Positions 9,549 to 9,685 of a DNA stretch of 10,399 nucleotides are shown piece after piece; position 1 is the stretch's first letter; each line of letters begins with the position of its first letter. The DNA comes from a virus. Lineage: Monodnaviria; Loebvirae; Hofneiviricota; Faserviricetes; Tubulavirales; Inoviridae. A program made the position numbers and the translations under genes. A model generated the notes under the pieces. It was not told where the DNA came from. It made no database searches and worked only from the letters and a program-made list of their open reading frames with translations. The stretch lies in IMG/VR virus record IMGVR_UViG_2609459774_000002. The stretch is one strand, 5' to 3'.

Positions 9549-9685
9549 GTTTGCACCGCAATATATTTACCGCATGCGCGCATCATAATCACATTTAACA
9601 CGTGTTGTAAATACGCATGCGCTATGCGGGTGTAAAAAAAATGGAATAATCACCTTCTATTGAAAGGACATAGAGGTAAATTTTG
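9549..9685. promoter_or_regulatory. Divergent control region of element A with nested palindromes (CGCATGCG twice, ATGCGCGCAT, AACACGTGTT); candidate operator and/or plus-strand origin
   Basis: Perfect palindromes at about 9571-9583, 9597-9606 and 9614-9621 between the divergent regulator and the Rep operon; AT-rich -10-like hexamers present. Confidence 0.4.

Follow-up and report, generated by a model that had tools for sequence, protein, structure and literature searches.

The described systems closest to the locus studied here are the rstR/ig-2 switch of CTX phage and the small ribbon-helix-helix (RHH) repressors. El Tor RstR is of the Cro/cI helix-turn-helix type and binds long operators as tetramers, and the El Tor ig-2 carries a LexA box. 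MetJ is an RHH repressor that acts on tandem 8-bp palindromic met boxes, AGACGTCT. RstR alleles repress their own ig-2 promoter in an allele-specific manner, as studied with lux reporters for eight alleles, the allele of the present locus not being among them (PMC11509585), and ig-2 of CTX phage contains three RstR binding sites (PMC4762005).

The prophage and its divergent control region

We analyzed a stretch of 10,399 bp (referred to here, at its full length, as the window), which matches the chromosomes of E. coli E24377A and other strains with 100% identity and adjoins hipBA. Matches were present in 34 of 5,426 complete E. coli genomes, 23 of which matched across most of the region, and the carriers of the prophage include enterotoxigenic and other E. 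coli. The genes and sites relevant to this work are as follows.

About 2505-10378: filamentous prophage (element A)
2477-2497 and 10379-10399: dif-like sites, AGTGCGCACAATGACGTTATG
3003-4223, minus strand: secretin
4233-5396, minus strand: Zot-like assembly ATPase
5860-7185, minus strand: pIII-like protein
8155-9548, minus strand: controlled operon, with the 65-aa ORF, then the Rep_trans initiator, on into the structural genes
8155-9351, minus strand: Rep_trans (RstA-like) replication initiator
9351-9548, minus strand: 65-aa ORF (PHROG 3104), first gene of the rep operon, with no known function
9686-9898, plus strand: gene of the 70-aa regulator (PHROG 2503)
592-1641, minus strand: Phage_CRI/G2P Rep of a second element
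1759-1947: divergent 62-aa ORF of the second element (MPTKHINDVQW..., PHROG 5219)
1646-1658, 1686 and 1717: repeats of the second element, CTTAGATTCTAAG, CTTAGATT and TTTAGAT, respectively

The dif-like sites at 2477 and 10379 indicate that the prophage is integrated at dif, like CTX phage. The regulator gene and the start of the rep operon at 9548 are divergent and separated by 137 bp, which is the arrangement of a CTX-type ig-2 module. Further likenesses to CTX rstR/ig-2 are a small repressor gene divergent from the replication operon, a compact intergenic region with several putative sites over the rep promoter, the exchange of repressor and intergenic region as a unit (the window compared with locus L006, described below) and an ori(+) beyond the repressor gene. 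Unlike El Tor RstR, which has about 112 aa (339-bp gene), the regulator of the window has 70 aa, is predicted to be an RHH protein and is associated with 8-bp CATG boxes. Unlike El Tor ig-2, the control region has no LexA box: the pattern CTG-N10-CAG has five matches in the window and none within the control region 9549-9685, so that SOS co-regulation of the CTX kind is not indicated. The host differs as well, being E. coli, and Rep proteins other than RstA also occur joined to the cassette.

Several features of the surroundings are recorded here in their own right. The 65-aa product is acidic, and its stop codon overlaps the start of Rep (ATGA); similar 64-aa ORFs occupy the same position in the Photorhabdus loci L040 and L043, as does a 192-bp ORF in E. 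coli L006. To the left, and in tandem, stands the second dif-type filamentous element (592-2504), which differs from the first, and the N terminus of its 62-aa ORF resembles the translation of the rstR-calc primer (MATKHIKD). Both elements close with one module (2299-2504 and 10203-10399) made of a small membrane-type ORF (MNNWSEIILDLLMKH...) followed by the dif-like AGTGCGCACAATGACGTTATG. Ahead of this end module, a GC-rich stretch common to both elements (about 2180-2260 and 10060-10140) may be a folded attP region.

Palindromes, the predicted rep promoter and their conservation

The original prediction had described four perfect palindromes in the control region between the divergent small regulator gene and the Rep operon, and both the gene positions and, to the base, the palindromes agree with it. 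The sequence CGCATGCG occurs at 9571-9578 and 9614-9621 with a spacing of 43 bp and has no further exact copy in the 10,399 bp of the window, the expectation being about 0.16 (uniform model, simple arithmetic); ATGCGCGCAT lies at 9574-9583 and AACACGTGTT at 9597-9606. To these we add a fifth perfect palindrome, AATATATT, at 9560-9567. The pentamer ATGCG/CGCAT is found six times in 9565-9632 and 27 times across the whole window. ATGCGCGCAT is the junction of the tandem 8-bp boxes CGCATGCG and CGCATCAT and no independent element.

Promoter prediction, which had been proposed as a check, gave a strong sigma-70 match between the regulator and the Rep operon, aimed into the latter. The predicted rep promoter consists of a -35 TTTACA (9611-9606), an 18-bp spacer and a -10 TATGAT (9587-9582), matches the consensus at 10 of 12 positions and is the only strong sigma-70 match that the scan gave in the region. 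Its parts and the boxes around it are arranged as follows.

9571-9578: box L1, CGCATGCG, CATG core at 9573-9576, just downstream of the -10 and over the expected transcription start of the rep operon
9579-9586: box L2, CGCATCAT, core CATC at 9581-9584, an 8-bp tandem repeat of L1 that overlaps the -10
9582-9587, minus strand: -10 TATGAT of the rep-operon promoter, from the promoter scan
9597-9606: central palindrome, AACACGTGTT, with CGTG at 9601-9604, in the promoter spacer beside the -35
9606-9611, minus strand: -35 TTTACA of the rep-operon promoter (TGTAAA on the plus strand)
9614-9621: box R1, CGCATGCG, CATG core at 9616-9619, ending 2 bp upstream of the -35
9622-9629: box R2, CTATGCGG, degenerate, with an ATGCG half-site at 9624-9628
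9642-9650, plus strand: candidate extended -10 TGgAATAAT of the regulator's own promoter, read from the sequence

The boxes thus flank and overlap the predicted -35 and -10, as the sites of a CTX-type module overlap the rep promoter; L1 and L2 begin inside the -10 and extend across the expected rep start at about 9575, and both second boxes of the window, L2 and R2, are degenerate. A repressed promoter is arranged in this way. The consensus scan did not report the regulator's own promoter, and the candidate at 9642-9650 is located with little confidence; the element TGgAATAAT is identical in the related locus L004, and other relatives have an ATATGA-like element at the same place. If this candidate is correct, its -35 region would fall on the right operator. 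The left TATTTAC(C/A) (9563-9570) was considered as a plus-strand -35 and rejected because no acceptable -10 is found at 16-18 bp from it. We note separately that an inverted repeat, TATTTACC (9563-9570) and TGTAAATA (9606-9613), encloses the entire promoter-operator core; its left copy is kept in the Enterobacterales and Gilliamella loci and missing from the Vibrio loci, and the repeat is not accounted for by the operator model.

The conservation of the boxes was examined in 11 non-redundant loci whose regulators have the strand DTTVRIN (DTTVRVS in Salmonella L038), with the intergenic regions anchored on TGTAAAT. These loci come from E. coli (two), V. cholerae, V. anguillarum, Xenorhabdus, Arsenophonus, Gilliamella, Salmonella, Photorhabdus and two uncultured sources, and represent seven genera. 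Their intergenic regions align nearly without gaps. The CATG of L1 is present at offset -33/-32 in all 11, CATGC being invariant, and L2 has CATG or CATn at offset -25/-24 in eight if half-sites are counted, with A and T at 9582-9583 invariant. On the right, the CATG of R1 is found at offset +10 in nine loci, and a tenth has a half-site there; the C and A of positions 9616-9617 are invariant, and C9614, G9615, T9618 and C9620 are at least 90% conserved. Where R2 lies, a complete second CATG is present in the Vibrio relatives, 8 bp past the first (offset +18). Of the promoter, the -35 TGTAAATA is invariant in all 11 loci, and nine have, at the same spacing, a -10 that reads TATNAT or differs little from it (TAGTAT, TAATAT). 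The density of CATG is 46.8 per kb in the 70-bp core compared with 3.2 per kb in the other 62 kb of these loci.

The central palindrome behaves differently. CATG is found at its offset (-5) in five of the 11 loci and a half-site in three more; in L004, its place is taken by AAGGCATCAT, and E. coli RIVM_C037794, which has an identical regulator protein, differs from the window by two substitutions in the whole intergenic region, both of which fall in this palindrome and turn it into AATGCGTGTT. Because it is not conserved, the role of AACACGTGTT is doubtful, and it is best read as a weak or degenerate, drifting third box that is lineage-specific. Lack of conservation among related phages had been named as the outcome that would speak against the operators; it holds for AACACGTGTT, which is broken in close relatives that share the regulator and is not supported as a conserved operator, but not for the outer CGCATGCG boxes, which are kept at fixed offsets across the 11 loci, L1 in all of them and R1 in ten if one half-site is counted.

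These data also bear on the question of whether the cluster has any function. With one mismatch allowed, CGCATGCG-like and AACACGTGTT-like matches are no commoner in the window than in shuffles, and the variation of the central palindrome among close relatives would likewise fit a cluster that arose by chance. However, only 4 of 1000 dinucleotide-preserving shuffles had, at any place in the window, five perfect palindromes of at least 8 bp with centers no more than 60 bp apart, and the outer boxes and promoter hexamers hold fixed positions across seven genera, which makes chance clustering scarcely credible. It is also very unlikely that the palindromes serve as single-strand hairpins, for example in a minus-strand origin or a packaging signal. 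Such hairpins do occur in intergenic regions of filamentous phages, and the DNA of the control region folds slightly better than shuffles (z-score of -2.1, with 6 of 200 shuffles as good); but the palindromes are of 8-10 nt and loopless, the long-range pairing is merely that of two identical palindromic boxes with each other, the relatives keep the boxes and not the complementarity of their flanks, and conservation tracks the promoter hexamers and box cores rather than stems. Downstream of the regulator, single-strand folding gave a z-score of -1.5, and the relatives offered no support for a structure in either of these regions.

Association of the boxes with the regulator and not with Rep

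RstA nicks CTX DNA in the loop of the second ori(+) hairpin, which lies in ig-1 downstream of rstR (PMC4439123; PMC8265649). A homologous hairpin is present in the window.

9984-10007: hairpin ACCCCCGT-GTTACAAG-ACGGGGGG, homologous to the second hairpin of the CTX ori(+)

CTX ig-1 and VAI1 both contain the stem ACCCCCGT-N8-ACGGGGGT, and the hairpin of L006 is identical to that of the window. The presence of this homologue therefore places the Rep nick site better at 9984-10007, about 370 bp from the palindromes and beyond the regulator gene, and judging from the sequence, this hairpin would be the better nick-site candidate. The palindromes had also been put forward as a possible nicking origin, bound and cut by Rep at the plus strand. 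In favor of this proposal, initiators of rolling-circle replication often act at inverted repeats, the palindromes adjoin the rep gene, and the two arms that contain CGCATGCG can pair in single-stranded DNA with the fold score given above. An origin of the Rep_trans/RstA kind would be expected to follow the type of Rep and to resemble the CTX hairpin, and the palindromes do neither: the same boxes occur with three unrelated Rep families and are absent from L006 despite the same Rep, whereas the hairpin at 9984-10007 does follow the Rep type. We therefore regard nicking at the palindromes as very improbable, and this part of the original prediction is not supported.

The boxes do follow the regulator. 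The same regulator and boxes stand beside Rep_trans, Phage_CRI/G2P and a 666-aa replication endonuclease of the Phage_GPA type; in Gilliamella L036, they adjoin a Phage_CRI/G2P Rep, and both L004 and L036 share the cassette with the window and differ from it in Rep. Conversely, in L006 (E. coli AST217), the Rep operon and the downstream region are those of the window, but the small regulator is a different one (MAEKRKSYNVPNEKYL...), and the intergenic region of this locus contains no CGCATGCG and has CATGACCTCATG/CATGAGGTCA repeats instead. Regulator and intergenic region thus vary as a unit among otherwise similar phages, as would be expected of a basis for heteroimmunity, and since the boxes go with the regulator across Rep types in these module swaps, they belong to the regulator.

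A further arrangement was seen in L005 (E. coli E100341), where, in the stretch 5660-6530, the window-type regulator gene recurs but lacks its operators, and is placed downstream of a class-D regulator (MKRKAIAITES...) equipped with GTTAAC boxes of its own. At the joints of L005, about 40 bp of sequence, CATAGTTACCTATCGATACGAAGATTGCTAAGAAGCAATAT, are repeated, and this recurrence suggests cassette recombination.

The regulator family and its specificity

At the DNA level, the regulator gene is about 70% identical to rstR genes in V. cholerae CTX and pre-CTX records (one of which carries the note 'environmental RstR') and in V. anguillarum VAI1, and the protein shares 63-68% identity with the 'environmental' RstR and the RstR-like protein of VAI1, which makes it a homologue of these RstR proteins. 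Protein searches found homologues at 60-80% identity in Salmonella, Gilliamella, Providencia, Xenorhabdus, Arsenophonus and Photorhabdus. The label given to PHROG 2503 is 'unknown function', and about 196 cluster representatives (50% identity) match the family profile at E values up to 0.001.

The regulator is predicted to be an RHH protein. The original prediction had assigned it to this fold, and the assignment stands indirectly, through the structural model of a relative, while at the sequence level, no RHH family and no solved RHH structure was matched significantly. Pfam has no family for the regulator, and among 29 and 70 relatives, only isolated weak matches appeared, to ParG (E 0.025) and RHH_5 (E 0.0027). 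A PDB sequence search with two profiles gave no RHH protein and nothing relevant; hhalign against Arc, Mnt and CopG gave an E value of 0.15, which is not significant, in the correct register; and the monomer model, of mediocre quality and little informative (pLDDT 69, with a disordered N terminus), retrieved no RHH structure. Six members of the family (P0156, P0170, P0185, P0186, P0207 and P0212) are tandem duplications in one chain of 142-149 aa. Of these, P0185 is homologous to the regulator (hhalign probability 97.9%), and its model (pLDDT 81.8, pTM 0.75) is confident and shows strand-helix-helix twice, with TraY as the best structural match and the N-terminal strands of the two copies paired, which is the RHH arrangement. 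T11-V12-R13 of the window's regulator aligns to the strand of P0185. As TraY-like single-chain pseudo-dimers, the duplicated members could read asymmetric sites.

There is no significant sequence similarity to Arc, Mnt (P22) or TraY (F plasmid), and compared with these proteins, the regulator is modelled with a longer loop between the helices and an extra C-terminal helix; no Pfam model covers the family. The likeness to MetJ lies in the DNA, where palindromic boxes of 8 bp follow one another head to tail every 8 bp (as L1 and L2 do, and the repeats of other specificity classes more clearly), and an RHH protein would place one beta-ribbon on each box. Unlike MetJ sites, those of the window have few boxes each, with degenerate second boxes, and no sequence relationship to MetJ was found.

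Family members have conserved helices and a hypervariable strand; in the latter, every class has hydrophobic residues at positions 12 and 14, and positions 11, 13 and 15 vary. The strand classes and the repeats in their intergenic regions pair as follows.

Strand TTVRIN (residues 11/13/15 TRN): repeat CGCATGCG, 11 loci
Strand TT[IV]AIN (TAN): repeat TACATGTA, 6 loci
Strand KSIGIS (SGS): tandem ATGTGCAA, 4 loci
Strand KAIAIT (AAT): tandem TGTTAACA, 3 loci
Strand KSYNVP (SNP): repeat CATGAGGTCA, 1 locus

The repeats of the other classes often have an 8-bp period, for example, ATGTGCAA three times and TGTTAACA three times. The alternating residues of the strand vary with the operator, as in RHH proteins, which is a correlation and not a contact map; such a pairing is the pattern that would be expected if the beta-ribbon reads the boxes, although a correlation is not a proof.

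A binder of the CATG boxes other than the adjacent regulator is conceivable, either a host transcription factor or the 65-aa product of the operon, and for this it can be said that the evidence linking the regulator to the boxes is indirect and that the 65-aa ORF has no known function. We consider this unlikely. The box sequence changes whenever the N-terminal strand of the regulator does, both within E. coli hosts and across genera; the 65-aa ORF is kept in L006, where the boxes differ, and is not called in L036, where the boxes are present; and with hosts spread over Vibrionales, Enterobacterales and Orbales, a single host factor common to all is less probable.

Taken with the promoter geometry, the fixed offsets in 11 loci, the module swaps and the co-variation of strand and box, we consider it likely that the palindromes are, as had been predicted, repressor operators, here of a CTX-type immunity cassette, bound by the adjacent 70-aa RHH regulator. 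Alongside the observed anatomy, conservation, box-regulator linkage and modelled fold of the homologue, we infer binding, its stoichiometry and cooperativity, repression and autoregulation in the following way. The region 9565-9630 would be the promoter-operator core and the counterpart of ig-2 of CTX phage. Dimers of the regulator would bind 8-bp boxes built around a CATG core; the left pair of boxes (9571-9586) would cover the -10 and the point where transcription of the rep operon starts, the right pair (9614-9629) would abut the -35, and a weak central box (9597-9606) would lie in the spacer. Occupied boxes would block RNA polymerase and keep Rep and the downstream genes off, which would lead to lysogeny and to immunity against same-type phages. 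It is probable that the right site also covers the promoter of the regulator gene itself, in which case it would mediate autoregulation.

A wider proposal, which we put forward tentatively and on which we stay slightly on the doubtful side, is that filamentous phages encode a widespread family of RHH repressors of about 65 aa in which the strand residues 11, 13 and 15, facing outward, set the sequence of the 8-bp boxes, and that the cassette moves as an immunity unit between phages whose initiators are of three unrelated kinds. Going by primer sequences, rstR-6 (MKKKYTSLRV...) may be in the same family. FpsR of phage SW1 was considered as a characterized relative and rejected; it is a 13-kDa helix-turn-helix protein. 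Coliphage If1 (L048, NC_001954) contains an intact, unannotated 63-aa member of the regulator family (MATPKRTTMAIVAERKLKLERLAIDASHTAGRAITWTDIVNHLIDNYAKD...) at 484-674, inside the 'major intergenic region', and this gene adjoins a 126-aa ORF that by eye is like an IS200-type transposase.

The known picture of the control of CTX-like phages is unchanged by this work. This kind of switch is known; as far as the searched literature goes, its E. coli member and the family-level pattern of specificity have not been described. The analysis gives a predicted, concrete function to a 'hypothetical protein' and its neighboring DNA in dif-integrated filamentous prophages, predicts which of these prophages are mutually immune and sets the replication origin apart from the regulatory region. 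In addition, it offers a small, testable case of an RHH protein changing its DNA specificity. If the wider proposal is true, the family would hold a simple recognition code of natural origin (a change of Arg13 to Ala, for example, going with one from GCATGC to ACATGT) and would provide mutually orthogonal mini-repressors.
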